Positions 4,385 to 64,000 of a stretch of 64,000 bases of DNA are shown one piece after another. The DNA lies in contig CAWAWO010000002.1 of the NCBI GenBank assembly GCA_963785835.1, forward strand, positions 140,464 to 204,463, given 5' to 3'. A program made the position numbers and the translations under genes. Numbering within the stretch: the stretch's first letter is position 1; each line of letters starts with the position of its first letter. The notes beneath the pieces were generated by a model. That model saw only the letters and a list, made by a program, of their open reading frames with translations, searched no databases and was not told the origin of the DNA. Origin of the DNA: an uncultured Actinomycetes bacterium. GTDB lineage: Bacteria; Actinomycetota; UBA4738; HRBIN12.

Positions 4385-4957
4385 ATGGCGGCCGAGACGC
4401 ACATCCTGATGGAGGGCTACCTCGGGCCTGGCGATCTCACCGCGGCGACGGTCGGGTTCGTTCGGGACGGCGAGGTGTTGGTGGTCGTCGATCCGGGGCT
4501 CGTGCCCGGTCGGCAGGCGATCCTCGATCCGCTCGCCGACCTCGGCGTCGAGCCCGAAGCGATCACGGACGTGGTGCTCTCGCACCACCATCCCGACCAC
4601 ACGTTGAACGCGGCGTTGTTCCCGAACGCCCGGGTCCACGACCACTGGGCGTGGTACCGCGACGACCTGTGGGTCACCCGTCCCGCGGAGGGCTTCGAGC
4701 TGTCGCCTTCGATCCGACTGATCGAGACGCCCGGTCACTCCGCCCAGGACATCTCGACCGTAGTGGACACCGACGACGGGCTGGTGGTCTTCACCCACCT
4801 CTGGTGGACGTCGGAGCGCCCCGAGGAGGACCCGTACGCGCCCGACCCCGCGCTGCTCCACGAGAACCGCAGGCGAGTCCTTTCCTTGCCTGGGCTCCGG
4901 ACGGTCGTCCCCGGTCACGGTGCGCCGTTCGAGCCCGGGCCCGGGACGCCGCCCTGA
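4385..4957 (+). CDS. MBL-fold metallo-hydrolase
   Basis: HHHPDH zinc motif and later TPGHS. ATG at 4385 preferred; a GTG at 4358 directly abuts the hydA stop. Confidence 0.75.
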   Translation: MAAETHILMEGYLGPGDLTAATVGFVRDGEVLVVVDPGLVPGRQAILDPLADLGVEPEAITDVVLSHHHPDHTLNAALFPNARVHDHWAWYRDDLWVTRPAEGFELSPSIRLIETPGHSAQDISTVVDTDDGLVVFTHLWWTSERPEEDPYAPDPALLHENRRRVLSLPGLRTVVPGHGAPFEPGPGTPP

Positions 4958-5259
4958 GCCCGTCCCGGCGCGATGCGGTAGCCCACGCCGCGCTCCGTCT
5001 CGATCCAACCAGGGCCGAGCTTCCTGCGCAGGTACCGGACGTAGACGTCGACCCGGTTCGACCGGGGGTCGAAGTCGAGCGACCAGACCTCGGCGAGCAG
5101 CTCGCGTCGACCCACGGTCTCGCCTTCGTGACGCATCAGCGTCTCGAGCAACTCGAACTCTCGCGGCGTGAGCCTCACCACGCGTTCGCCGACGCGGGCC
5201 GTGCGGGAGAGCAGATCCAGCTCGAGGTCGCCGACCTTCAGCCGGACGACGTGGGCCAC
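4915..5259 (-). CDS. stand-alone OmpR/PhoB-type winged-helix DNA-binding domain protein (no receiver domain)
   Basis: The last 114 codons of the 4915..6405 ORF read VGDLELDLLSRTARVGERVVRLTPREFELLETLMRHEGETVGRRELLAEVW..VDVYVRYLRRKLG..IETERGVGYRI, a complete trans_reg_C domain. GTG at 5259. The upstream part of that ORF overlaps mmuM out of frame. Confidence 0.55.
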   Translation of the reverse strand: MAHVVRLKVGDLELDLLSRTARVGERVVRLTPREFELLETLMRHEGETVGRRELLAEVWSLDFDPRSNRVDVYVRYLRRKLGPGWIETERGVGYRIAPGRAQGGVPGPGSNGAP

Positions 5260-23899: not shown

Positions 23900-24123
23900 C
23901 GAGGTCCTTTCCTCGGTGCGAGGACGGTCACGACGTATGAACGCCTCTCTCGGTACGTCGTGATCCTCAGGATACGCCCAGTGTCCGTCCTGCCCCAGAC
24001 ATGAACGCGATCCCACGTTCGCGCCCTGGTCTCCGCGATGACGTTCCGCAGAGCCTGGGCGATCTCCCCTTCGCTTATCCGGCGCTCGACCATCCGTCGG
24101 CGCGCATGTTTGCTGAGGATCAC
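23896..24123 (-). CDS. DUF4258 family small protein (putative toxin-like)
   Basis: 75 aa, ILSKHARRRMVERRISEGEIAQAL is the typical DUF4258 N-terminus. The GTG start overlaps the cpaB-like stop (GTGA). Local GC is visibly lower than the flanks. Confidence 0.75.
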   Translation of the reverse strand: MILSKHARRRMVERRISEGEIAQALRNVIAETRARTWDRVHVWGRTDTGRILRITTYRERRSYVVTVLAPRKGPR

Positions 24124-24770
24124 GCAGTCTGGGTCGGCGCCACCGATACCGAGATCTGCCCGAACGCCGCGGCGTGGGCCAGCCGTTCGGCGACGTCGGG
24201 GCTGACCAGCAGCACGAGCGACGGACCGCTCGCGCCGCCGGCCTCGAAGGTCCCGCCGCCGTCCTCGACGATGGAGAGGATCTCGAGCCCGCTCCCGACG
24301 GTGTCGGTATACGGACGCGGGCCGCCGAACGTCGCGATGACGTCGACGAGATCACCGGGACGGAGCACGCCGGCGGGGACGCCGGCGGTCACGACGAAGG
24401 CGCGGAGGCCGCTCGTGACCTGCGAGGCCACCGGTCCGCCGGCGCCGCCGACCCGCGTCCTGGTGACCGCCTCCCCCTCGGCGAGGTCCGAAACCAACGT
24501 CCGGCCGACCGCGTCGTCGATCGCGGTGAGCGCTCCCGGCGGTGCGTAGGCGCTCGGCACTCGATCCAGCCGCAACGCGTCCTCGACCAGCACGGTGCCG
24601 CGCTCGAGCGGCTGGGCCGCGACCACGACCGCGGTCGGATCGCCCGTGGAGGGTCGCAGCGCCTCGAGCTCGGCGGCGTACCCCCGGACCAGCGTGAACG
24701 AGCCAGCCCCCGCCACGATCGCGAGCACCGCGAACACCTTCGACCTCGGCGACCACCGCCGAAGAAACAC
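24120..24770 (-). CDS. CpaB/RcpC-like SAF-domain membrane-anchored protein
   Basis: GTG behind GGGAGGTG. N-terminal anchor VFAVLAIVAGAGSF, then SAF-like (VVVAAQPLERGTVL) and RcpC-like (GDLVDVIAT) regions. No other tad/cpa genes in the window. Confidence 0.8.
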   Translation of the reverse strand: MFLRRWSPRSKVFAVLAIVAGAGSFTLVRGYAAELEALRPSTGDPTAVVVAAQPLERGTVLVEDALRLDRVPSAYAPPGALTAIDDAVGRTLVSDLAEGEAVTRTRVGGAGGPVASQVTSGLRAFVVTAGVPAGVLRPGDLVDVIATFGGPRPYTDTVGSGLEILSIVEDGGGTFEAGGASGPSLVLLVSPDVAERLAHAAAFGQISVSVAPTQTA

Positions 24771-24839
24771 CGCTCACCTCCCGCCGAGGGAAGGACGATG
24801 CACGCTACGCGAGGCGAACGCGCAACGCCGTGAGCCAGG

Positions 24840-25016
24840 TCACACTTCGCGAGGTTTCTTGGGGGGCGTCAGCGGCAGGACACGGAGCCGGAAGTCTTCG
24901 AGCGCCTCCCGCCCGACGACCATCGAGACCGCCTCGCGGACCCGGTCGCCGAGTTGCTGCGTGTCGTCCTCGGTCGTGAAGCGGATCTCGACCGTGACGA
25001 GGACCTTCTCGCCCAT
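24840..25016 (-). CDS. hypothetical 58-aa protein, immediately downstream of MTAP
   Basis: MGEKVLVTVEIRFTTEDDTQQLGDRVREAVSMVVGREALEDFRLRVLPLTPPKKPREV. The ATG directly follows the MTAP TGA and lies behind GAGGTGGAG. It is below the ORF-track length cutoff, and I recognise no homology. Confidence 0.45.
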   Translation of the reverse strand: MGEKVLVTVEIRFTTEDDTQQLGDRVREAVSMVVGREALEDFRLRVLPLTPPKKPREV

Positions 25017-25814
25017 TCACTCCACCTCGAACCGCGCGTTCTCCAGCGCGGTCGCGCACTCGCAGTCGCGCTCGGCGGGGAACGCAGGGATCGCGGCGAA
25101 CAACAGGTTCCGGAGCCGCGCGTTGTTCTGTTGGAACGCGCGGATCACCTCTTCGTGGGTGACGGGAGGAGCGCCGGGCACGGCGACGTCGTAATCGGTG
25201 ATCAGCGAGATGTTCGCGTAGCAGATCTCGAGCTCGCGGGCGAGTACGACCTCGGGGTACCCGGTCATGTTCAGCGTGTGCCAGCCGACCGAGTTGAACC
25301 ACTCGGATTCGGCGCGCGTCGAGAACCGCGGTCCCTCGATCACCACCATCGTCCCGCCCTCGTGCAGGCCGATGCCGAGCTCGCGCCCTTTCGCGACGAT
25401 CGTCGAGCGCATCGTGGCGCAGTAGGGGTCGGCGAACGAGATGTGGGTGGTCACCGGTCCGTCGTAGAACGTGTGCGGCCTCGACCGCGTGCGGTCGACG
25501 ATCTGGTCGCAGATCACGAACTCGCCGATCTGCACGCCGGTCTGGAGCGAGCCCGCCGCGCAGGGCCCGACGATCCGTTCGACGCCCAGCTCCTTCATCG
25601 CCCAAAGGTTCGCCCGATAGTTGATCGCGTGCGGCGGGTACTGGTGCTTGATCCCGTGACGCGGGATGAACGCCACGCGCGACGAACCGACCTGGCCGAC
25701 GACCGGCGAAGCCGACGGCTCGCCGTACGGCGTCTCCACGTGCACGGTCTCGGTGTCCTCGAGCAGGGAGTAGAAGCCGGAGCCGCCGAAGACGCCGATC
25801 TCGGCCCGACTCAC
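25017..25814 (-). CDS. mtnP: S-methyl-5'-thioadenosine phosphorylase
   Basis: IGVFGGSGFY, FIPRHG, INYRANLWA and NMTGYPE motifs. GTG at 25814 behind AAGGAGGG overlaps the FmdB stop (GTGA). Confidence 0.9.
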   Translation of the reverse strand: MSRAEIGVFGGSGFYSLLEDTETVHVETPYGEPSASPVVGQVGSSRVAFIPRHGIKHQYPPHAINYRANLWAMKELGVERIVGPCAAGSLQTGVQIGEFVICDQIVDRTRSRPHTFYDGPVTTHISFADPYCATMRSTIVAKGRELGIGLHEGGTMVVIEGPRFSTRAESEWFNSVGWHTLNMTGYPEVVLARELEICYANISLITDYDVAVPGAPPVTHEEVIRAFQQNNARLRNLLFAAIPAFPAERDCECATALENARFEVE

Positions 25815-26173
25815 GACGAGGAGCCCTCCTTCGACGAGCCGGAGCCGGACGTGGACGAGGACGAGCCCTCCGAGGTGGACGCGGTCCCCGAACCGCTCTC
25901 GGAGGAAGAGGAAGAGGTGGAGGAAGACGCGCCGTCGCCGGAGCCGGAGGTCGCCGCCGCGTCGGCCTTCGTCTTCTCGGGCGTGGGCTTGGAGGCCGAA
26001 CGGCTGTCCGTCGCGTAGAACCCGGACCCCTTGAACACGATCCCGGCCGGATGGAAGACCTTCCGGAGGGCGCCGCCGCACGCGCCGCACGTCGTCAGCG
26101 CGTCCTCGGAGATGCGCTGGAAGACCTCGATGTGCTGTCCGCACGACGTGCATTCGTACTCGTAGGTCGGCAT
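25811..26173 (-). CDS. FmdB-family zinc-ribbon protein with Ser/Gly-rich tail
   Basis: MPTYEYECTSCGQHIEVFQRISE..CGACGG is the canonical FmdB CxxC...CxxC ribbon, followed by a low-complexity S/G/T tail. Confidence 0.85.
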   Translation of the reverse strand: MPTYEYECTSCGQHIEVFQRISEDALTTCGACGGALRKVFHPAGIVFKGSGFYATDSRSASKPTPEKTKADAAATSGSGDGASSSTSSSSSESGSGTASTSEGSSSSTSGSGSSKEGSSS

Positions 26174-30394: not shown

Positions 30395-30468
30395 GGGGGT
30401 GTAGCTCAGTCCGGTAGAGCACTGCCTTCGCACGGCAGGGGTCAGGGGTTCAAATCCCCTCACCTCCA
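30395..30468 (+). tRNA. tRNA-Ala (anticodon CGC)
   Basis: Folded by hand. Acceptor GGGGGTG/CACCTCC with the G3:U70 Ala identity pair, D arm GCTC-AGTCCGGTA-GAGC, anticodon stem CTGCC/GGCAG with loop TTCGCAC, T arm AGGGG-TTCAAAT-CCCCT, discriminator A. CCA is not encoded. Confidence 0.92.
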
Positions 30469-30529
30469 CGGTCGAAATCCGAGAGTCAGCGGCCTCCTGA
30501 ACCATGGGCGGGAGGCAAACGAGGGGCAG

Positions 30530-49038: not shown

Positions 49039-50094
49039 TCACGCCCAGATGTCGCCGAGCGTGAAGCCTTCGGGGAACGGGTCGGACGGATCGAGCACGT
49101 ACTCCGCGAAGCCGGTGATCCACGCGCTGCCGCCGAGCGTGGGCACCACGGCCGGCAGCTCACCGACCGCGGTCTCCTCGACGAGCCGGCCGACGAAGCG
49201 GGTGCCGAGGACACCTTCGTGCACGAAGTCCTCGTTCAGGGCGAGCTCGCCCTTCGCGTGTAGCACGGCCATCGCGGCGCAGGTCCCGGTCCCACATGGG
49301 GAGCGGTCGATCGCGCCGGTCCACGTCTCGGGCCGTTCCCAGTCGAGGGTCCCGGTCGAAACGACGACGGCGTTCCTTCGCGTCGCCGTCGGATCGTGGG
49401 GCGGGCCCCAGAGCTGCGAGATCGAGATGCCCTCGATCGCAGGGTTCTCCGGATGCGCGACCGGGAGCCGCTCGCGGGCCGCGGCCTTGATCATCTCTCC
49501 GATGCGGACGATCCGGCCTCCTTCGTCCGGCACGAGGTCGAGCCCGAACTGCGTCGCGTCGGCGATCACGTAGAACATCCCGCCCCACGCGACATCGACC
49601 TGAACCGCTCCGAGCTCCGGGACGTCCACGACGGCGCCCAGATGCACGGCGAACGCCGGGACGTTGCGGAACGTCACCAGCGTGACCTTCCCGTCCTCCA
49701 CCTGCGCGGTGACGTGCACGAGGCCCGCGGGGGTCTCGAGGACCAGCTCGGTCACCGGTTCGATCGCCTCCACGATCCCGGTCTCGATGAGCACGGTCGT
49801 CACGCAGATCGTGTTGGTGCCCGACATCGGCGGGTACTCGGTCTGCTCCATGATCACGAAGCCGGCATCGGCCGACGGATCGGTCGGTGGGAGGAGCAGG
49901 TTGCAGTTGGCGGCCGGGTACCCACGGGGCTCGCGCAGCATGAGCCTGCGCACGTCGTCGCCGTGCTCTCGGAGCTGCACCATCTTGTCGAACATCGTGG
50001 CGCCCGGGACGTCCGGAACGCCGTCGACGATCACCCGCCCGGGTTCGCCGCAGGCGTGGGCGTCGACGGCCGTGATCCGCTTGGCGAACGCCAT
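49039..50094 (-). CDS. proline racemase / hydroxyproline epimerase-dehydratase family protein
   Basis: 351 aa. VDAHACGEP N-terminus. The second catalytic motif DRSPCGTG is present, but the first catalytic position reads MSGTN (Ser where canonical racemases have Cys). Confidence 0.85.
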   Translation of the reverse strand: MAFAKRITAVDAHACGEPGRVIVDGVPDVPGATMFDKMVQLREHGDDVRRLMLREPRGYPAANCNLLLPPTDPSADAGFVIMEQTEYPPMSGTNTICVTTVLIETGIVEAIEPVTELVLETPAGLVHVTAQVEDGKVTLVTFRNVPAFAVHLGAVVDVPELGAVQVDVAWGGMFYVIADATQFGLDLVPDEGGRIVRIGEMIKAAARERLPVAHPENPAIEGISISQLWGPPHDPTATRRNAVVVSTGTLDWERPETWTGAIDRSPCGTGTCAAMAVLHAKGELALNEDFVHEGVLGTRFVGRLVEETAVGELPAVVPTLGGSAWITGFAEYVLDPSDPFPEGFTLGDIWA

Positions 50095-50107
50095 CTCGCC
50101 GTGAACG

Positions 50108-50940
50108 CTATCCCGTCGGGGTGGTCGCGCCGGGGACCGAGTTCATCAACCGTCGCGTGTACGCATGCGTCGGCCTGGAGAGGACCTCGTCGGCGGGGCC
50201 ACTCTCGACGACCGCTCCCTGGTACAGGACGTAGATCCGGTCGGCCACCTGACGGACGACCGCGAGGTCGTGCGTGATGAACAGGTACCCGATCTGCAGT
50301 TCCCGCTGCAGCGTTCGGAACAGGTTCAGGATCTGCGCCTGCACGGACACGTCGAGGGCGGACACCGGCTCGTCGCAGACGAGGAGCTCGGGCTCGCACG
50401 GCGAGGGCGCGGGCGATCGCGACGCGCTGACGTTCGCCGCCCGAGAGGGACGCGGGCTTGCGGCGAGCGTAGTCGTGGGGGAGACCGACCTGGTCCAGGA
50501 GCGCGGTCGACCGCCCCGCCCCGGACGCCGCGCTTGCCGGTGACGCCGGAACGTGCAGCGCCTCCGTCAGGCGTGCGTTCGACGGTGTGCGCGTGGGTTC
50601 GAGCGTCGAGTACGGATCCTGGAAGATCATCTGCACGGTGTGGCGCAGGCGCGTCCTCGCCGTCTTTCGACAAGCGCGCGCGAAGTCGGATCGCGTCGAC
50701 GCCATCGACGCGATGCGTCCCGACGATCGGCGTCTCGAGGCCGACGAGGCACCGGCCGAGCGTCGTCTTGCCCGGACCCGGACTCGCCGACGAGGCCGAC
50801 GCACTCACCGCGGCGCGATCGTCGAGCGACACGCCCTTCAGCGCCTGCGACCTCGCGACCGCGTCGCCAGATCGAACGTCTTGCGCAGATCCCGCGACCG
50901 CGACGCAGTCGATCGCCGTGCAGGGCCGGAGCGGTCTCCG
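50108..50940 (-). pseudogene. oligopeptide/dipeptide ABC ATPase (OppF/DppF-like), multiply frame-disrupted
   Basis: Motifs lie in different frames: GECVGLVGESGSG | KTTLGRCLVGLETP | [28 protein letters not shown] | [28 protein letters not shown]. The 5' boundary is approximate. Confidence 0.75.
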
Positions 50941-51974
50941 CCGCGAGCGCGAGGACGCGGTCGCGCAGCTCCTGCATCTCCGATCGGATCTCGCGCGACC
51001 GGACGCACGCGCGTGTGCCGGCGCGGTTCGATCTCCATGAGCGGCGGTCTGCCGGTCCGGCACACGTCGTGCGACCCAGCGGCAGCGCGGCGGAGAACGC
51101 GCATCGGTCCTGCGACGTCGTCGGGGGCCGGGACCGAGCCGGGGATCGCCGCGAGCTCGCCGAGCTTCTGCTCGACCGATGGCTCGGAGAGCAGGAGTCC
51201 GAGCGTGTACGGGTGCAGCGGCTCGCGCTCGAGCGCCTCGGCGCGTGCCGACCTCCAGCAACGAGCCGGCGTACAGGACGTAGACCCGGTCGCACGTGGT
51301 GAACGCCACGCGGAGATCGTGGGTGATCGAGGATCAGGCCCATCCCGCGCGCGCGCTGCACCGAACGGAGCAGCTCGAGGATCTCCGCCTGGGTCGTGAC
51401 GTCGAGCGCGGTCGAGGGCTCGTCGGCGATCAGCAGGTCGGGGTCGCGTGGCGAGCGCGGCGGCGAGCGCGACGCGCTGACGCATCCCACCGGAGAGCTG
51501 GAACGGGATAGCGCTTGGCGACCGATCGGGTCGTCGATGCCGACCTCGGCCAGGCGCCGGAGCGTCTCGTCCCGTACGCGCATCTCGAGAGGAGCGCTGG
51601 CCGTCGGCCGAGAGCATCTCGCTCGATGTGCTCCCCGCAGCGCAGGAGCGGGTTCAGCATCGTGAACGGGTCCTGGAACATGAGCGCGATCGCGCCGCCC
51701 GCGGAGCCTGCGCATCTCGCTTCTCGGGGAGCGTCCATCAGGTCGCGACCGCCGGTACCGAACGCTGCCGTCGGCGAAGACCCCCGGCGGGAGCAGACGA
51801 GCGACGGCTCGCGCGGTCAGCGACTTGCCCGATCCCGACTCGCCGACGATCCCCACCGTCTCGCCCGGCTGCGACGGTCAGGTCGGTGCCGGCGGTGATC
51901 GCTGTGCTCGTCCCGGAGCCGATCTCTGACCGAGATCGCGAAGGTCAGAGACGCTCGAGGAGCGCGCTCGTCAT
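50940..51974 (-). pseudogene. oligopeptide/dipeptide ABC ATPase (OppD/DppD-like), about 10 frame switches
   Basis: ATG at 51974, 3 nt after the oppC-like stop. Fragments alternate between three frames: VGIVGESGSGKS | [14 protein letters not shown] | [18 protein letters not shown] | [23 protein letters not shown] | [16 protein letters not shown] | HPYTLGLL. The 3' boundary is approximate. Confidence 0.75.
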
Positions 51975-51977
51975 CGC

Positions 51978-52855
51978 TCACCGCGCGGACATCCGTTCGT
52001 AGAGTCCAGTCCCCGATGATGTTGATGCTGGCCGCCGTGACGACGATCGCGGCCGCCGGGAGCAGCGCGGCCATCGGATTGGTGAGCAGGATCGTCGCGG
52101 TTCTCGAACAGCATCCGGCCCCAATCGGCGGTCCCCGGTGGCACGCCGAGCCCGAGGAACGACAGCCCCGCGAGGCTCACGAGCGCGAACGCGAAGTCCA
52201 GGACGACGTAGCGCAGCGATGAGCGGAAGGATGTTCGGGAAGATGTGTCGGAACATGATCCGGCGGCGCGAGATCCCGAGCGTCCTCGCGGCCTCGATGT
52301 AGGGGAGAGGGCGCTGCTCGAGCACGGCGCTTCGGACGATCCTCGTATCCGGGGCAGTGAACAGGACCACGAGCACGACGACCGCGGTCCAGAACCCTCC
52401 CCCCACGACCCCCACGATCACGATCGCGATCAGCGGGCCCGGCAAGGCGAACATGAAGTCGACCCACCGCATCACGACCGAGTCGGTCGCGCCGCCCACG
52501 TAGCCGGCCATCAGGCCGAGGATCGTCGCGATCGCGAACGCGCCGGCTGCCACCACGGCAGGGCCGACCAGCGCGGTCCGGGCGCCGACGATCGTGCGCG
52601 ACAGGACGTCCCGTCCGAGGAGATCGGTGCCCGCCCAGATGCTCCGCACTCGGCGGTGTATCGCCGAGGAGCAGGTCTTGCTGGTTCGCCGGATACGGGC
52701 GCGATCTGCGGCCCGAACGCGGCGCAGACGATCGCGACGGCGACGAAGGCCATGGCGATCCAGACCGTGACCGGAGGGCGTCGCCTGCGGCTGACCGCGG
52801 TCTCGGCGATGGACGAGGGGATCGCCGCGGAAGGCGCGACCTCCTCGAGCTTCAC
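51978..52855 (-). pseudogene. peptide ABC permease (OppC/DppC-like), frame-disrupted
   Basis: N-terminus (VKLEEV..VWIAMAFVAVAIVCAAFGPQIAP) in one frame, the core (GTDLLGRDVLSR..EAARTLGISRRRIMFRHIFPNILP) in a second, then LAGLSFLGLGVPPGTADWG and AAIVVTAASINIIGD in others. Confidence 0.75.
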
Positions 52856-53817
52856 GACCCCACCCTTCCGAACCGGATCCGCGGGTCGATGAGCGTGTAG
52901 AGCACGTCGATCCCGATGTGCATCAGCACGATGAAGATCGCCAGGATGAGCACGACCCCCTGGATCACGGGGAAGTCACGTTGGCCGACGGCGCTGACCA
53001 GCAGCGAGCCGAGCCCCGGGAGACGCGAACGTGACCTCCACGAGGACGGCGCCGGTCAGCAGTCCCACGACGATGAGGCCGGCGGCGGTCACCACCGGGA
53101 TCAAGGCGTTGCGCAGGACGTACGAAGTCGTGATCCGCCGGCTCGCGAGGCCGCGAGCCCGCGCGAACGCCACGTAGTCCTTCTGCGAGCTCCTCGATCA
53201 TCGAGGCGCGCGTGATCTTGATCACGAGCCCCATGACCGTGAGAACCGAGCGCGATGGCGGGCAACGTGAGATGCCAGAGCTGGTCGAGGAAGCCCTCTC
53301 CCTGTCCGAAGATCGGGAACCATCCGAGGTACACGCCGAACACGTAGAGGAGGAAGATCCCGGTCGCGAACGCCGGTGCGCTCACGCCGATGACGCCGAT
53401 CGTGACGACGCCCCGGTCGACGTCGGAACCGTGTCGGTAGGCGGCGAGGACCCCGAGGGGGATGCCGATCCCGAGCGCGATGAGGCTGCCGTACAGCCCG
53501 AGGAAGACCGTCAGCGGCAGGCGCTGCCAGATCATCGTCGTCACCAGCTGGCTCCCCTGGATCGAGCGGCCGAGGTCCCAGGTCAGGACCTGTCGCAGCC
53601 AGATCAGGTACTGGACGACGAACGGCTCATCGAGGTGGTACTGCTCACGGATGGCCGCGAGGGTCTCCGGGCTCGCCTGACGTGAGCCCAAGAGCGAGCG
53701 TGCCGGGTCTCCCGGAGCGATGTTCACCAGCGCGAACACCCCGAGCGAGATGACGAGCAGGAGCGGGATCGCGACGAGCAACCGCCGCAGGACGTAGGCG
53801 GGCAAACCCCCGGTCAA
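52852..53817 (-). pseudogene. peptide ABC permease (OppB/DppB-like), three frame switches
   Basis: TTG at 53817 overlaps the peptidase stop. YVLRRLLVAIPLL..LPAIALG, then shifts near 53235, 53180 and 53010. Each looks like a 1-nt insertion (ggTtctc, ctcGcag, cccggGg). It ends with DFPVIQGVVLILAIFIVLMHIGIDVLYTLIDPRIR. Confidence 0.75.
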
Positions 53818-55719
53818 GCGCGATCCTCGAGGTACCGCTCGAACCACGCGATCGTTCGACGTTCGGCGTCGGCCGCGTGCTCTCGTTCGCGGAACCCGTG
53901 TCCCTCTCGCGGATACACGACGAGCTCCGTCGGGGTGCCGTTCAGGACGAGGCCCTGATAGAGCTCCTCGGCCTGGCCGAGCGGTGTGCACTGATCCTCG
54001 GACCCGTGGAGGATCAGCGTGGGGGTCTTCGCGCCGGCGACGTGGGTGATCGGGGAGCGTTCCACGAACAGCTCCAGCGATCGCGGATCCCGGTGGTCCC
54101 CGCCGCAGATGAACTCCGCGAAGGCGTGGTTGCACGTGAGGTGGCAGCTCAGGTTGTCGACGATGCCCGAGACCATCACCCCGGCGGCGAATCGATCCGT
54201 CGTGCACACGGCCCACCCCGTGAGGTAGCCGCCGTAGCTCGCGCCGGTGACGCCGATCCGGCCCGGCGCGGCGATGCCGAGATCGACGCAGTGGTCGACG
54301 CCGAGCAGGATGTCGTCGAACTCGGCCCCGGCCGGATCCCCCACGTTCATCCGCGTGAACGCCTGTCCCCGACCCGTGCTGCCACGGTAGTTGGGAAGGA
54401 ACACCGCGAACCCCGCGGCGGCGAGCGGAAGCGCGTACCCGGGGTCGAACGCATGCTTCCACGCCCACGTCGGCCCGCCGTGGATCATGACGACGGTCGG
54501 GAAGGGGGGTTCGCCCGACGGGACGAGGAGCAACCCGCGGATCGGCAACCCACCGGCGCCCTCCCACTCGGTCTCCCGCACCTCCGGGTATCCGTCCAGC
54601 TCGTCGGCAAGGTCGTCGTTGAACGTCGTCAGGGCGCTCCACGTCCCGTCGACGCCGGTCGATCGGTGCATCACCTCGGGGGGTCGGCGGACGGACTCAC
54701 GGATCCCCACGAACCCGTTTCCCGGGATAGGCGCGATCCGAGCGTGGAAGCTGCTCGGTCCGACGATCGCGTCCTCGACGACCGCCCATCGGACGTCGCC
54801 GTCGAGACCGATCGCTCCGAACCGTGAGCCGAACCCATCCCAGCCCGCGAACCACACGACGTCGGGCTCCAGCCACCCGACCGACGTGACGTCGCTGATC
54901 CCGGGATCGAAGGCACCGAGCTCGCCCGAGGTCAGATCGACGATGCGGATGTCGCCGGCGACGAGTCCTCGGTCGCTCGACCACCCCTCGAGCAGGGCAA
55001 CCCTGGACCCGGACGGGTCGGCGACGGGCCCCTGCACCTGACGGTCGGGGATCCACAGGTCGCGTGCCGACCTCGCGTCCAGGTCGAGGAGCGCGAGGCG
55101 GGCCCGGTACCAGCCGCTCTCCGACGGGTCGTCGGACACGAGGGCGACCGCCGTCGACGGGTCGACGAGGTCGAACTCCCAGACGGCCATCCCCTCGGGC
55201 TCGACCTCCTCGGTCGCCCCGCTCTCGGCGTCGATCCGGAAGAGGCGCCGCCATCCCTGATCGGGCTGGAAGACCTGCGGATCGGGCCGCGGTTCGCTCC
55301 AGCTCAGCCGCACCGCGCCGTCGGTCGCGGCCCCGAAGCCTCCCTCGTCGACCGCGATCGCGACGACGCACGCCACCGTCGCTCGACCAGGCCGCATCCT
55401 GCACCGAACCCTCGATCCGACCGAACGGTGCGGGTTCGGCTCCCGGCCGCAGCTCGAACAGCGACATGCGGCCCACGACGGGAGCTTCGGAGGTGAAGAT
55501 GAGGCGGTCGTCGACCGGCGACCACCGGGGCATCGTGTCCGTTCGAGGTCCGAACGTGAGCTGCTCGGTACGACCATCCATGCCGAGGCGCCAGATGCGG
55601 CTCTCGAAGCTCGCCCCGGCGTCGTGGTGGGCAGGGAAGACCGCGACGGCGATCGATCGACCTCGGTGATCGAGCGACAGGTCGACGGGGTAGCGGACGC
55701 GGTCAAGGATGGCCAGCAT
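53814..55719 (-). pseudogene. S9 family serine peptidase (prolyl oligopeptidase/acylaminoacyl-peptidase-like), one frame switch near 55375-55385
   Basis: The C-terminal alpha/beta hydrolase domain is intact (VMIHGGPT, GASYGGYL nucleophile elbow, ILHGSEDQ, GHGF). The N-terminal beta-propeller begins in the 54697..55851 frame (MLAILDRV..WSSDGG). Confidence 0.8.
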
Positions 55720-55820
55720 CCGCTCGGCTCGGTCAGATCGGCCATCGATGCATGCCTCCGCGGCCCCGGACCCGGACGAGCGCCCGGCGGGGCCGAGTGG
55801 CCGAGAGCGCTCGGTCCGTT

Positions 55821-57450
55821 CTACGCCGGTCCGAACCCCCGGGTCGCCCACGGGATGTTGTACCAGAAGGCGTTGTAGCCATCGAGACGCAGGTCGGAGC
55901 TGATCGCCATCGCCGAGTCCGGCCAGTGGATCGGCACCGTTGCCACGTCGGCGTTCGCCTGCTCGATCACCTGCTGGAGCGCATCCGCGCGCTCCGCCGT
56001 GTCGGTCGACTGGAGCGCTTCGTCGATCAGGGCGTCCACGTCCTCATTGCGGTAGTTCGATCCGTTCAATCCGTTCGCGACCGCGTTCCCGCTGTAGTAG
56101 AAGAGGTACGGGTAGTTCGCCGGGTCGGCGTAGTCGGGGAAGTACGACATGAACTGCGCGCCCAGGTCCTCGTGAGCGAAGTAGACGTCGAGCCACTCGC
56201 CGGGATCCACCTGCTGGACGTTCATCGTGATCCCGATCTGGGCGAGCGTCTCCGAGATCGCGAGGAACGAGTTGATCGCCACCGGGTCGGTGTTGGGCAC
56301 CGGGACGGAGAACTCGAACCCGTCGGGGACGGACGATTGCGCGAGCTCTGCCCGGGCCGCATCGAGATCGAACGCGTACGTGGGGATCGTGTCGTAGAAG
56401 GAGTTGACGGAAGCCTCGTCCAGCACGCCGCCCCAGATCCCCGGTGGGTTGATCGCGGTCGCGGCTGCCCCCTTGCCATTCAGCACGGCCTGGACGATCC
56501 CCTCCCGGTCCACGGCGAGCGCGATGGCCTTGCGGACGTGGAGGTCGTCGAAGGGCGGGGTCTCCTGGTCGAGGATCAGCTGGTACACGCCGTTCGACGG
56601 CGCGGTGATCACCGTGACGCCGTCGAGACCCTCCCACTGGTCGACCTCGGAGATCGGCACGTCGAACGTGCCGTCGATCTCGCCGCTCTGCATCGCCAGC
56701 AGGCGGGTCTGCGAGTCCGGGATCTGGCGGATGACGATCCGCTGCGCGGCGCCGGGCTCGCCCCAGTAGTCCTCGTAGCGCTCGAGGGTGACGTGATCGT
56801 CCGGCACGAATTCGACGAGCTCGTACGGGCCGGTTCCGAGCGGCAGCACGTCCGGCGTGCCGAAGGTCTCGCCGGCGGACTCGAGCTGCGCCTGGTTCAT
56901 GATGAAGCCCGACATGTGGGCCATCGAGTACTGGAACTGCGCATCCGGTTGGCTGAGCGTTACGGTCACCTCGTTGTCGGCGGTCGCCTCCACGCTCTCG
57001 ACGGAGGCGAAGAAGGCCGCGAGCTGCGAGGCATTGGCCTCGTCCATGTTCCATTCGATCGTGAAGACCACGTCTTCGGCCGTCAGCGGGCTGCCGTCGT
57101 GGAACGTGACCCCATCTCGGAGGGTGAACACGTACGTGGTGGGGTCGACCGCCTCCCAGGTCTCCGCCACGGCCGGCTGGAGGCTGCAGGTCGTCGCCGA
57201 ACGCGAGCGCGCCCTCCTCCACGAGCGACATGACGGCGCCGGAATACGTCGTCCAGTCATGGGGCACGAGCAGCACGTCGGGAAGGTCGGGAAGTGCCCA
57301 GGTCACCTCCTCGACGGTGCCGGTGCCTGTCGTCGTGGCTCCGTCGCCCTCGCCGTCGCCCCCTTCGCCGCTATCGCATGCGGCTGCGATCAGCGACAAC
57401 GACAGGAGCGATGCTGCGAACAGCGTGCGAGCGTGCGTGCGCCGTTCCAT
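55821..57450 (-). pseudogene. ABC peptide substrate-binding lipoprotein (family 5), one frame switch near 57185-57192
   Basis: MERRTHARTLFAASLLSLSLIAAAC lipobox and N-terminal region in the 56044..57507 frame. From LQPAVAETWEAVDPTTYVFTLRDGVTFHDG onward it is in the 55821..57260 frame. Confidence 0.8.
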
Positions 57451-57512
57451 GCTCGTCCCCCTTGTTCCGAAGGCCGCCCGGCGTGGTCGGCGGGGTTGAG
57501 TATTCATCTGGT

Positions 57513-57532
57513 TGTCTTACGATGTCAAGACA
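57513..57532. promoter_or_regulatory. palindrome TGTCTT-N8-AAGACA in an AT-rich divergent intergenic region, candidate GntR/FadR-type operator
   Basis: Read directly: perfect 6-bp inverted arms overlapping the ATG at 57522. A related sequence lies upstream of the GntR gene (59324-59344), with 13 of 21 positions identical by my manual alignment. Confidence 0.3.
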
Positions 57533-58481
57533 GCCGCGGGGAGGGTGTGTCGTGGACGATCGGAGATCTCGTTCGCGTCCGGTGGGGACCTACTCGATCG
57601 TCGCGCGTGATGACTCCGAAGCGCTCGGGATCGCCGTGCAATCCCACTGGTTCAACGTCGGAGCCGTGGTCCCGTGGGTGGAGACGGAAGCGGGAGCGGT
57701 TGCGGTCCAGTCCATCACCAGCCCCGAGACGGGCAAGCGCGCGCTCGACCTCCTGCGCTCCGGCATGCAAGCGGATGCGACCCTCGCGACCCTCCTGGAG
57801 GGCGACGAGGACGCGGCGTACCGACAGATCGCGATCGTCGATGCGCACGGAGGTGTCGCGACGCACACCGGCTCGCTGTGCATCGACGAAGCGGGGCATC
57901 GCACGGGCGCCGGGTACTCGGTCCAGGCGAACATCATGGACCGGCCGAGCGTGTGGTCGGCCATGGGGGACGCGTTCGAGCGGTCGGGCGGGGACCTGAC
58001 CGACCGCCTCCTCGCCGCACTCGAGGCCGCCGAAGCCGAAGGGGGCGATCTGCGCGGGCGCCAGTCCGCCGCCATCGTCGTGGTGCCGGGGACCGCGGGA
58101 GATCCCGGCTTCGACCTGCGCGTGGAGGACTCGCCCGATCCTCTCGGTGAGCTGCGACGTCTCGTGTCGCTGCAGCGCACGTACCTCGAGCTCAACCGCG
58201 GTGACCTCGAGATGGCGAGCGGGGAGTTCGGAGAGGCGCTCGCGGCCTACGGACGTGCCGCCGAGATGGTTCCCGACCAGGCGACCGGCGGCGAGGCGGC
58301 GTTCTGGACCGGGGTCGCGTTCGCGAGCACCGGGCGTGTCGACGAGGCGGTGTCCTTCCTCCGGAGGGCCGCCGCCGAGGGCGACCGATGGTCGCGACTC
58401 CTCCCGCGGCTCGTCAGGTCGAAGATGTTCCCCGATGACCCCGCCCTGCTCGAGCGGTTGCTGCGGACGATGAAGCGCTAG
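57522..58481 (+). CDS. DUF1028 (Ntn-hydrolase-like) family protein with C-terminal helical repeat region
   Basis: GTYSIVARD (N-terminal nucleophile-type Thr), AVQSHWFNVGA, QANIM and GGDLRGRQSAAIVV. The start is ATG 57522 or GTG 57582. Confidence 0.8.
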   Translation: MSRQPRGGCVVDDRRSRSRPVGTYSIVARDDSEALGIAVQSHWFNVGAVVPWVETEAGAVAVQSITSPETGKRALDLLRSGMQADATLATLLEGDEDAAYRQIAIVDAHGGVATHTGSLCIDEAGHRTGAGYSVQANIMDRPSVWSAMGDAFERSGGDLTDRLLAALEAAEAEGGDLRGRQSAAIVVVPGTAGDPGFDLRVEDSPDPLGELRRLVSLQRTYLELNRGDLEMASGEFGEALAAYGRAAEMVPDQATGGEAAFWTGVAFASTGRVDEAVSFLRRAAAEGDRWSRLLPRLVRSKMFPDDPALLERLLRTMKR

Positions 58482-59289
58482 ACCGCGGGCGCGCGTCGCG
58501 TCCGTCGAACGACAGGTCGGCCGTCCACGACAGGTGCGACGACATCGCTCGTCGCGCGCCGGACGCCGAGCCCTCGCTGATGGCCTTGAAGATCGCCCGA
58601 TGTTCACGGGTCGAACGCTCGACGCCCGAGGGCCGGCTGGTCAGGCTCATGGTCCTGGCGGCCAGGAGTGCGGGCTCGATCGAACGCAGGAGGCTGCGGA
58701 GCGGTCGGTTGCCCGTCGCCGCGAGGATCGCGTCGTGGAAGCCGACGTCGATCGCCGCGAACGCGGCGGCGTCACCTCCCACGTCGGTCATCGCCGCGAT
58801 GAACGTCTCGATGAGGGCCACGTCCTCGGCGCTCGCGCGCTCGGCCGCGAGTGACGCGGCCTCGATCTCGATGATGCGCCGAACCTCGAGGAGATGGATC
58901 AGGAACTCGTCCACGCTCTGGAGCTCGCGTCGCGCCTCCAGGACCTCCGGCGCGAACTCGTTCCAGTTCTCGTACGGGAGGACCTCGGTGCCCCGGCCTT
59001 GCCTGCTTCGGAGCATGCCCAGCATCGTCACGGACTTCGTGGCCTCTCGGACGACCGGCCGGCTGACCCCCAGCTGTTGCGAGAGCACCTCTTCGGTGGG
59101 GAGCAGATCACCCGGGCGGTAGTGGCCCTCGATGATGCTGCCGATGATCTCCCTCGTGATCTTCCGTGAGAGCGTCTCCGTCGCGACCGACGTGAAGCGA
59201 TGCGGCGAGTCGTCCTCTCGGGACCGAGGAGGCGAGCCGCTCCGCTCGACGCCGGCGCCGGGCGCCGGCCGACCGCGCTTTCCGGACAC
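58414..59289 (-). CDS. GntR/FadR-family transcriptional regulator
   Basis: wHTH (LPTEEVLSQQLGVSRPVVREATKSVTMLGMLRSRQGRGT) plus an FCD-like helical domain. The real start may be downstream of 59289. The 3' end overlaps the DUF1028 gene by 68 nt. Confidence 0.85.
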   Translation of the reverse strand: MSGKRGRPAPGAGVERSGSPPRSREDDSPHRFTSVATETLSRKITREIIGSIIEGHYRPGDLLPTEEVLSQQLGVSRPVVREATKSVTMLGMLRSRQGRGTEVLPYENWNEFAPEVLEARRELQSVDEFLIHLLEVRRIIEIEAASLAAERASAEDVALIETFIAAMTDVGGDAAAFAAIDVGFHDAILAATGNRPLRSLLRSIEPALLAARTMSLTSRPSGVERSTREHRAIFKAISEGSASGARRAMSSHLSWTADLSFDGRDARPRSSASSSAATARAGRGHRGTSST

Positions 59290-61536: not shown

Positions 61537-63897
<2,361 letters not shown>

Positions 63898-63925
63898 GTC
63901 GCCTCCTCGCGCGCTCTCGAAAGAC

Positions 63926-64000
63926 TCAGCTACCGACGGGGGTCTCGGCGCCCTCGGCCATCGTCCGCCCCGCGGTCTGGATGGCCTTCACGATGTTCAT
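63926..64000 (-). CDS. coxS: CO dehydrogenase small (2Fe-2S) subunit, C-terminal end (partial)
   Basis: Minus frame reads ..NIVKAIQTAGRTMAEGAETPVGS*, matching the C-terminal (CTGY)xNIVKA motif region of CoxS-type subunits. The gene runs off the window end. Confidence 0.6.
   Translation of the reverse strand: MNIVKAIQTAGRTMAEGAETPVGS

Follow-up and report, generated by a model that had tools for sequence, protein, structure and literature searches.

In early FALCON assemblies, indels were computationally introduced where merged haplotypes differ; gene predictions were broken while the underlying genes were intact, and phasing was the remedy (Korlach et al. 2017, Gigascience, PMC5632298). Long-read assemblies that are unphased or contain mixed strains show frameshift errors more generally. 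Indel errors in metagenome-assembled genomes (MAGs) from Nanopore or PacBio reads are mainly errors in homopolymer length, and they are targeted by IDEEL and proovframe (Sereika et al. 2022, PMC9262707). The 64-kb stretch of DNA analysed here (the window) carries a peptide ABC-uptake operon in which every gene switches frame, and it has features of both cases. As in the FALCON assemblies, its extra bases are located where variants differ, mostly at wobble positions, and represent the alternative allele. However, that case concerned a diploid vertebrate genome, whereas the window would involve bacterial strains or copies, probably in a metagenome, over about 3 kb. As with the errors in Nanopore and PacBio MAGs, local frameshifts truncate the predicted proteins of an otherwise good contig. 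Unlike those homopolymer errors, only 4 of 42 insertions in the window repeat a neighbouring base, and 95% of the events are insertions. Multiple frameshifts in consecutive operon genes are also found in Mycobacterium leprae-type pseudogene arrays. The window differs from these in that it has no stops once corrected, bears a signature of purifying selection, shows an insertion-dominated, non-repeat indel spectrum and contains other genes that proved intact when checked.

The operon lies on the minus strand (50108-57450) and consists of five genes. They encode an SBP_bac_5 solute-binding protein (SBP) with a lipoprotein-like signal (55821-57450; delimited by Pfam, the frame of the relative L001 and event placement), an S9 (prolyl-oligopeptidase family) peptidase (53814-55719; Pfam), permease B with BPD_transp_1_N and BPD_transp_1 (52852-53817), permease C with OppC_N and BPD_transp_1 (51978-52855), and a fused, GsiA-like double-ABC ATPase with two ABC_tran domains and oligo_HPY (50108-51981). 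The domains of the last three were assigned by Pfam on the corrected proteins. By these Pfam matches the system is an importer of the Opp/Dpp (PepT-family) type, with a family-5 SBP, two BPD_transp_1 permeases and an ABC_tran plus oligo_HPY ATPase. The glutathione importer GsiABCD of E. coli has a similar composition, namely an SBP_bac_5 protein, two BPD_transp_1 permeases and an ATPase with two ABC_tran domains and oligo_HPY. What sets the operon in the window apart from GsiABCD is an S9 peptidase gene that separates the SBP gene from the permease genes; in addition, a gene of the proline-racemase family follows downstream, and genes for a DUF1028/TPR protein and a GntR regulator are located upstream.

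A preliminary description of the sequence had parsed six genes. The operon has five because the presumed OppD and OppF are one gene (50108-51981); its orthologue in L001 is a single 612 aa protein. All 120 homologues among the matches listed measure about 480-630 aa, mostly 600-620 aa. Homologues are annotated as "peptide/nickel transport system ATP-binding protein". Two gene junctions were found as previously given: the stop codon of the peptidase gene and the start codon of permease B overlap in TTGA (53817-53814), and the GTG start of permease C at 52855 sits within a GTGA overlap. The ATG at 51974 that had been proposed as a start in the ATPase region is out of frame; the ATPase starts with GTG at 51981, inside the GTGA shared with the permease stop.

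The reading frames were analysed using a GC3 frame plot, three-frame translation, Viterbi segmentation, tblastn with intact orthologues and frameshift-aware protein-to-DNA alignment. All five methods agreed that none of the operon genes can be read in one frame, as had been proposed. About 46 frame-changing events were placed: one in the SBP gene, one in the peptidase gene, three in permease B, five in permease C and 36 in the ATPase gene. Compared with the relatives, 44 are single-base insertions and two are single-base deletions in the window. The single switches counted before in the SBP and peptidase genes were located at 57186 (CTG[C]AGC, a Leu CTG/CTC pair) and at an extra base at about 55369, respectively. 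Permease B contains extra bases at about 53243, 53186 and 53024. Its three single-base insertions had been recognized before, one of them as the extension of a G run, but none extends a G run: CCCGGGG is identical in L002, and the base actually added is the C of TTCG[C]GT. In permease C, where at least three switches had been counted, we placed five extra bases (about 52697, 52639, 52211, 52097 and 52003). The earlier count of about 13 for the ATPase region was too low, since we found 34 insertions and two deletions within 1.84 kb. Events are as close as 13 nt to each other. The rise in density towards the 3′ end was also seen, with the last event at about 50395 and none in the gene at 49039-50094. 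In all, 42 of the 44 single-base insertions fall within a dense tract at 50395-53244, an inferred merger of two sequence variants.

The neighbouring genes and the rest of the window are clean, the latter forming gene-sized frame blocks. The proline-racemase-family gene (49039-50094, minus strand; 351 aa) begins 13 nt downstream of the ATPase gene and shows no indel compared with L001 or L002. On the other side, a span of 57522-59289 had been treated as one clean unit; it contains two genes, both intact. One is the divergent plus-strand DUF1028 and TPR gene, whose maximal ORF covers 57294-58481 and whose true start is probably near 57.6 kb, and the other is a minus-strand GntR/FCD-family regulator gene (58414-59289; Pfam). 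Further broken genes were suspected at 24.1-25.8, 3.0-4.9, 25.8-27.2, 28.3-29.6 and 4.36-5.3 kb. Those examined in detail turned out to be adjacent genes sharing a frame, and Pfam matches, where present, cover the whole domain.

In six syntenic relatives with 77-91% identity, each gene stays in a single frame throughout. Between these relatives the ATPase gene differs by 239-469 substitutions and has only 1-5 small gaps that are not multiples of three, roughly balanced in direction. For the other four genes no such gap was found among the relatives, except for one of 11 nt at the permease junction of L007. The window shows 38 such gaps, and in 36 of them it is the window that has the additional bases. 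Soil MAGs produced with Nanopore, Flye and Medaka are the closest relatives; this is only suggestive of a noisy-long-read origin for the window assembly. The best match was 91% identical at the amino acid level in a scan of GTDB genomes, 79% in a scan of JGI metagenomes and 86% in a search of 5.8 billion proteins. An independent assembly was sought by exact-protein look-up of four window proteins, and no record was found.

The insertion statistics were based on 42 insertions and 5000 simulations, with alleles judged by proxy, that is, by polymorphism among the six relatives. The inserted base is never identical to the preceding base (0 of 42 cases) and matches the following base in four cases. 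Random insertions would repeat a neighbour in 23.9 ± 3.3 cases, and a value as low as four occurred in 0 of 5000 simulations. The remaining 38 insertions repeat no neighbour, and no homopolymer is extended; the contexts are mostly G[C]G and C[G]C. Very recent slippage, one of three options raised in the preliminary description, was therefore rejected: no homopolymer or short tandem repeat has changed in length, and neighbour repeats are far below expectation. The other two options, collapsed strain heterogeneity and a local consensus error, are supported by our data.

In 34 of 42 cases, the inserted base and an adjacent base are a pair of alleles, each of which is seen at precisely this column in at least one of the six relatives. 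This number exceeds all null expectations: 12.5 ± 3.0 for random insertions, 15.4 when the base was required to differ from both neighbours, and 19.6 ± 3.1 (maximum 32) when the flanking dinucleotides were matched, 34 being reached in 0 of 5000 simulations. Synonymous third-position pairs account for 28 of 42 insertions (null 12-19, P about 0.001), and 35 of 42 flank codon position 3. We compared these values with the genuine substitutions between the window and L001 in the same genes. The allele was present in relatives for 83% of the insertions and 80% of the substitutions, and 67% and 63%, respectively, were synonymous at position 3. These results show that, statistically, the extra bases behave as real alternative alleles do. 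Eight of the 42 insertions are not accounted for as allele pairs seen in relatives.

Motif-driven insertion, for example base-modification-linked errors at GG/CC, was considered and rejected, as the dinucleotide-matched null predicts 19.6 pairs compared to the 34 observed; moreover, the same flanking dinucleotides remain unaffected in other parts of the window. We also rejected the idea that the second haplotype is close to any one of the relatives. The inserted alleles are shared with L004, L003, L006 and L007 (15-18 of 34 each) and with L002 (7), and therefore no single donor is indicated.

The same data bear on a generic local hotspot of consensus errors caused by few or poor long reads (e.g. 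a single bridging read), with no heterogeneity involved. The limitation of the errors to about 3 kb would fit such a hotspot, as would the private substitutions of the ATPase gene, among which non-synonymous ones are modestly in excess, and the origin of the relatives from Nanopore MAG projects, in which low-coverage indel errors are common. However, random errors are blind to the alleles of relatives, yet the extra bases form allele pairs far more often than any null predicts, and both their codon positions and their synonymy are those of real substitutions. Moreover, long-read indel errors are centred on homopolymers and do not consist of 95% insertions, whereas most insertions here repeat no neighbour. 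We consider this explanation improbable.

When the extra bases were removed, full-length proteins without a single stop codon and with near full-length Pfam matches were obtained. In the corrected ATPase (608-612 aa), the Walker A, signature, Walker B and H-loop motifs are all present in duplicate, so that no ABC motif is missing; some of them had already been described as intact between the switches. The corrected proteins are 86-95% identical to those of L001 and L002 at the amino acid level, and along the corrected path of the ATPase gene only 10 of 305 invariant residues are changed. Divergence is 0.03-0.08 at codon positions 1 and 2 and 0.18-0.25 at position 3, as it is between the intact relatives. 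This substitution pattern is of the purifying-selection type. The earlier argument that old pseudogenes should contain many more substitutions than indels was thus borne out by the constrained codon-position divergence and the lack of stops. Old pseudogene decay is ruled out, as is slippage.

One signal deviates from this pattern. Changes private to the window in the ATPase gene number 63 at positions 1 and 2 and 58 at position 3, a ratio of 1.09 compared to 0.41-0.46 in the relatives; in permease B the ratio is 1.0. The private changes at positions 1 and 2 of the ATPase gene are not clustered beside insertions, and for 46 of 63 the nearest event is more than 5 nt away, so that gap misplacement explains only part of them. 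Allele doubling alone does not predict this excess, which therefore also requires some consensus noise, misplaced gaps or a relaxed constraint.

These elevated ratios would be compatible with a real, very recent pseudogenisation by many independent +1 insertions in the DNA of the organism, and so would the fact that the whole transcription unit is affected while its neighbours are spared, as for a dead operon. On the other hand, 36 events in 1.84 kb of the ATPase gene came with no stop and few altered invariant residues, and a spectrum of 44 insertions to two deletions includes no homopolymer extension. Pseudogene decay in bacteria is reportedly deletion-biased, with indels of varied size that are enriched in repeats. 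The window shows no such deletion-biased, mixed-size, repeat-rich indels, and of the relaxed selection and stops expected for pseudogenes only the private ratio in the ATPase gene gives a partial signal. We know of no mutational process that inserts an alternative synonymous allele at wobble positions, which also speaks against real pseudogenisation. Taken together, such inactivation appears very unlikely.

Programmed recoding, in which ribosomal frameshifting, transcriptional slippage or editing restores the frame, would fit the perfect family sequence of the peptides encoded between switches. Yet each of the 46 events would need its own signal, no slippery motif or homopolymer is common to the sites, and neighbouring events can be separated by as little as 13 nt. 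None of the six relatives conserves any site; there the proteins are encoded in one frame, and these intact orthologues in effect refute recoding already. We regard the likelihood of recoding as negligible. Another reading, in which the extra bases are physically in the DNA, some mutational or recombination-repair process having inserted the alternative allele beside the resident one at mismatched wobble sites over about 3 kb of a recombination-prone island, is highly improbable. A candidate mechanism would be that heteroduplex DNA formed by homeologous recombination was processed aberrantly, and the whole operon would then have been killed in one episode.

In our view, the frame breaks are very probably an artefact of the assembly consensus, most likely the result of merging two close variants with both alleles kept. 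Most of the indels fall at polymorphic positions, as judged by proxy among the six relatives, the spurious base behaves as an alternative allele and rarely repeats a neighbour, and its removal restores intact, conserved genes. According to this merged-variant model, reads or contigs of two closely related variants would have been merged across about 50.4-53.2 kb, with two outlying sites at 55.4 and 57.2 kb. At substitution sites, both alleles would be written side by side (e.g. CTC/CTG becoming CTCG), and each site doubled in this way would add one base and shift the frame. From this pattern we infer that reads of two populations existed and that they were joined at some software step. The variants may be co-occurring strains of one soil Actinomycetota population; two near-identical collapsed copies seem less likely. 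The confinement to about 3 kb assumes a recombination tract or a collapsed copy. A chimeric join of an L001-like and an L002-like sequence across the operon was rejected by sliding identity, as the window is roughly as distant from one as from the other and no abrupt change was seen; the scan revealed instead a divergence between L001 and L002 within this island.

The locus is naturally variable: identity between L001 and L002 is about 95% in the flanks but 77-90% across 49.7-59.6 kb, which makes it plausible that divergent alleles exist side by side here. Since the extra bases look like second alleles of variant sites, the genes are probably intact in the cells, and the real molecules probably carry an intact five-gene operon.

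The main value of these results is a caution that the frame breaks are, in all likelihood, not a real biological feature. At face value, the locus would be annotated either as at least five pseudogenes or as some 20 fragmentary ORFs, and it could be misread as a recent loss of peptide uptake; the evidence favours an intact transporter. Extra bases that do not repeat their neighbours, lie at wobble positions and carry alleles of relatives provide a read-free diagnostic that distinguishes merged variants from homopolymer error or decay. This diagnostic could be used to flag and repair similar stretches in long-read MAGs.

A separate observation concerns the 10-kb island around the operon: within this Actinomycetota lineage, it seems to be a hotspot of allelic diversity.

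Since the window has a G+C content of about 70%, the GC content of the codon positions reveals the reading frame. Frames were read by a GC3 frame plot, three-frame translation and, over the full 64 kb, a Viterbi segmentation with seven states, and the three methods were concordant. About 16 minus-strand frame switches were found within 3.1 kb (50.1-53.25 kb), together with isolated single switches at ~55.37 and ~57.19 kb, and the rest of the window falls into frame blocks the size of genes. The few segments outside the operon that looked unusual are neighbouring genes in a common frame, and their Pfam matches, where found, cover the whole model. At 24117-25832 (minus strand), for example, the segmentation had fused an MTAP-like phosphorylase, a 59-aa ORF and a CpaB/RcpC-like protein into one block; these are three successive genes in one frame with only stop codons between them, and were rejected as broken genes. 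The sole RNA gene found in the window is a tRNA-Ala (30395-30469).

To obtain references, GTDB genomes were scanned with the peptidase as query. Seven syntenic loci were found (77-91% amino acid identity), all in Actinomycetota MAGs, and six of them (L001-L004, L006 and L007) were used. In all six relatives each operon gene lies in one steady frame, and their DNA aligns colinearly to that of the window (77-88% identity). The relatives closest to the window are soil MAGs made with Nanopore, Flye and Medaka. Exact-protein look-ups of four window proteins returned no record, and nothing closer to the window than 86-91% identity was found in the collections searched.

The preliminary description had listed six minus-strand genes, with OppD and OppF separate. 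In L001, this region is one 612-aa ORF (L001 13385-15220) whose GTG start codon overlaps the stop codon of the permease (GTGA), and 120/120 ATPase homologues among the matches listed in a large protein search are likewise unsplit, with lengths of ~480-630 aa, mostly 600-620. The operon therefore comprises five genes, and its ATPase is one GsiA-like fused gene with two ABC domains. Pfam identified a family-5 solute-binding protein (SBP, 55821-57450) and an S9 peptidase (53814-55719) and, after frame correction, two BPD_transp_1 permeases (B, 52852-53817; C, 51978-52855) and the ATPase with two ABC_tran domains and oligo_HPY (50108-51981), all on the minus strand. The TTGA and GTG junctions were described correctly; the ATG at 51974 lies outside the ATPase frame, and the gene starts with the GTG at 51981. 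Pfam also placed a proline-racemase-family gene downstream and a minus-strand GntR/FCD regulator upstream of the operon. The stretch 57522-59289, described as a clean neighbouring gene, is indeed clean, but holds two genes, this regulator and a plus-strand DUF1028+TPR gene.

The indels were placed by a seven-way MAFFT alignment of the window and the six relatives, which gave 54 window-specific indels in 49.0-59.3 kb. We found one extra base each in the SBP and peptidase genes, three in permease B (also a 3-nt gap at the junction), five in permease C, and in the ATPase thirty-two +1, one +2, one +7, two -1 and one -3 events; the proline-racemase-family gene has none. A separate protein-to-DNA alignment by frameshift-aware dynamic programming yielded 1, 1, 3, 5 and 34 +1 events for the five genes in the same order, two -1 events in the ATPase, and no stop codons on the corrected path of any of the five. 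tBLASTn fragmented the operon in the same way. The reported frame breaks are confirmed and sharpened. As a control, intact relatives 239-469 ATPase substitutions apart show 1-5 small non-3n gaps of roughly balanced direction, part of them in the variable N-terminal part, and their other four genes have none except one 11-nt gap at the L007 permease junction. The window ATPase has 38 such gaps, 36 of which are extra window bases. The N-terminal 25 residues (51860-51990) and inter-domain linker (50440-50560) of the ATPase are hypervariable in length and sequence among the relatives, and indel placement there, including the +7/-3 events, is uncertain; four events near the N-terminus sum to +6 and are in frame overall.

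Base identity was analyzed for the 42 genic single-base insertions, with nulls from 5000 simulations. The inserted bases are C (22), G (14), T (3) and A (3). They equal the preceding base in 0/42 and the following base in 4/42 cases, compared to 23.9 ± 3.3 expected for random insertion, and slippage-type inactivation, one of three interpretations offered previously, was thus rejected. The insertions flank a third codon position in 35/42 cases, and 28/42 form a synonymous third-position allele pair with a neighbour. In 34/42, insertion and neighbour are two alleles both present among the six relatives at the same column, as in CTC[G]CAG, where relatives carry CTC or CTG, or TTCG[C]GT, where L001 has GGT (Gly) and L004 GCC (Ala). 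The nulls for this count were 12.5 ± 3.0 unconditioned, 15.4 ± 3.0 for bases differing from both neighbours and 19.6 ± 3.1 when matched for flanking dinucleotides, and 34 was reached in 0/5000 simulations; random error was therefore rejected as well. Inserted bases resemble genuine window-L001 substitutions in the same genes, both in matching an allele present in relatives (83% vs 80%) and in being synonymous wobble changes (67% vs 63%). Allele-pair, synonymy and base-identity statistics thus support the two other interpretations, collapsed heterogeneity or consensus error.

Divergence by codon position was computed after removal of the extra columns. Between the window and L001 it is 0.03-0.08 at positions 1+2 and 0.18-0.25 at position 3, a pattern that matches L001 vs L002. 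The corrected ATPase retains both sets of Walker A, signature, Walker B and H-loop, has no stops, and departs from 10/305 residues invariant in five relatives. Pseudogene decay was rejected because of the low position 1+2 divergence, the whole motifs and the lack of stops after correction, and the corrected genes look functional. Window-private ATPase changes number 63 at positions 1+2 and 58 at position 3 (ratio 1.09 vs 0.41-0.46 in relatives), and 46/63 lie >5 nt away from any insertion. This excess points to a degree of additional noise or relaxation and has only a partial explanation, allele doubling alone being insufficient; part is gap misplacement, as an apparent L-to-S change in YSTLNPRH vanishes if the C of CT[C]G is dropped instead.

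From these internal statistics and the comparison with relatives, we consider it highly probable that the frame breaks are an assembly artefact from merged variants, lying over an Opp/Dpp-type peptide importer operon that is itself ordinary and intact. In the simplest reading, two variants ~2% apart over 50.4-53.2 kb would have been merged into one consensus, which wrote out both alleles at many variant sites. We infer that a caller with an indel-dominated error model can favour 'GC' over 'G' or 'C' when reads split half/half, which would explain the near-absence of deletions. Possibly, a second copy of the permease-ATPase segment was collapsed instead, which would give the same picture. Merging of variants is in line with the surroundings: L001 and L002 are ~93-99% (about 95%) identical in the flanks (43.9-49.0 and 59.6-64.0 kb), and their identity falls to 77-90% over 49.7-59.6 kb, within an island of about 49.0-59.6 kb, which makes local heterogeneity at the operon plausible. 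This island contains the peptide operon and the DUF1028/TPR, GntR and proline-racemase-family genes, flanked by CoxG/MobA-like and XdhC/Mo-hydroxylase genes. Of these two, L001 is nearer to the window for SBP and peptidase, and L002 for both permeases and the racemase-family gene. Given this shifting affinity and the drop in identity, the island appears recombination-prone, and resembles a hotspot of recombination or allelic diversity set into a molybdoenzyme cluster.

All six relatives share the gene order GntR/FCD regulator, divergent DUF1028+TPR gene, SBP, S9 prolyl-oligopeptidase-family peptidase, permeases, ATPase and proline-racemase/hydroxyproline-epimerase-family gene, and in them, as in the window, the peptidase gene is embedded inside the ABC operon. 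This conserved order suggests that 49039-59289 is a candidate locus by which peptides containing proline or hydroxyproline would be taken up and degraded.

Elsewhere, a three-way alignment with L001 and L002 revealed ~20 extra window bases at 63601-64000, close to where the gene for the Mo-hydroxylase large subunit begins. A short minus-strand ORF at ~4915-5250 codes for a C-terminal DNA-binding domain alone, a winged helix of the OmpR type (…REFELLETLMRHEGETVGRRELL…GYRI). No obvious receiver domain precedes it, and the product is possibly an orphan response regulator or a truncated one.
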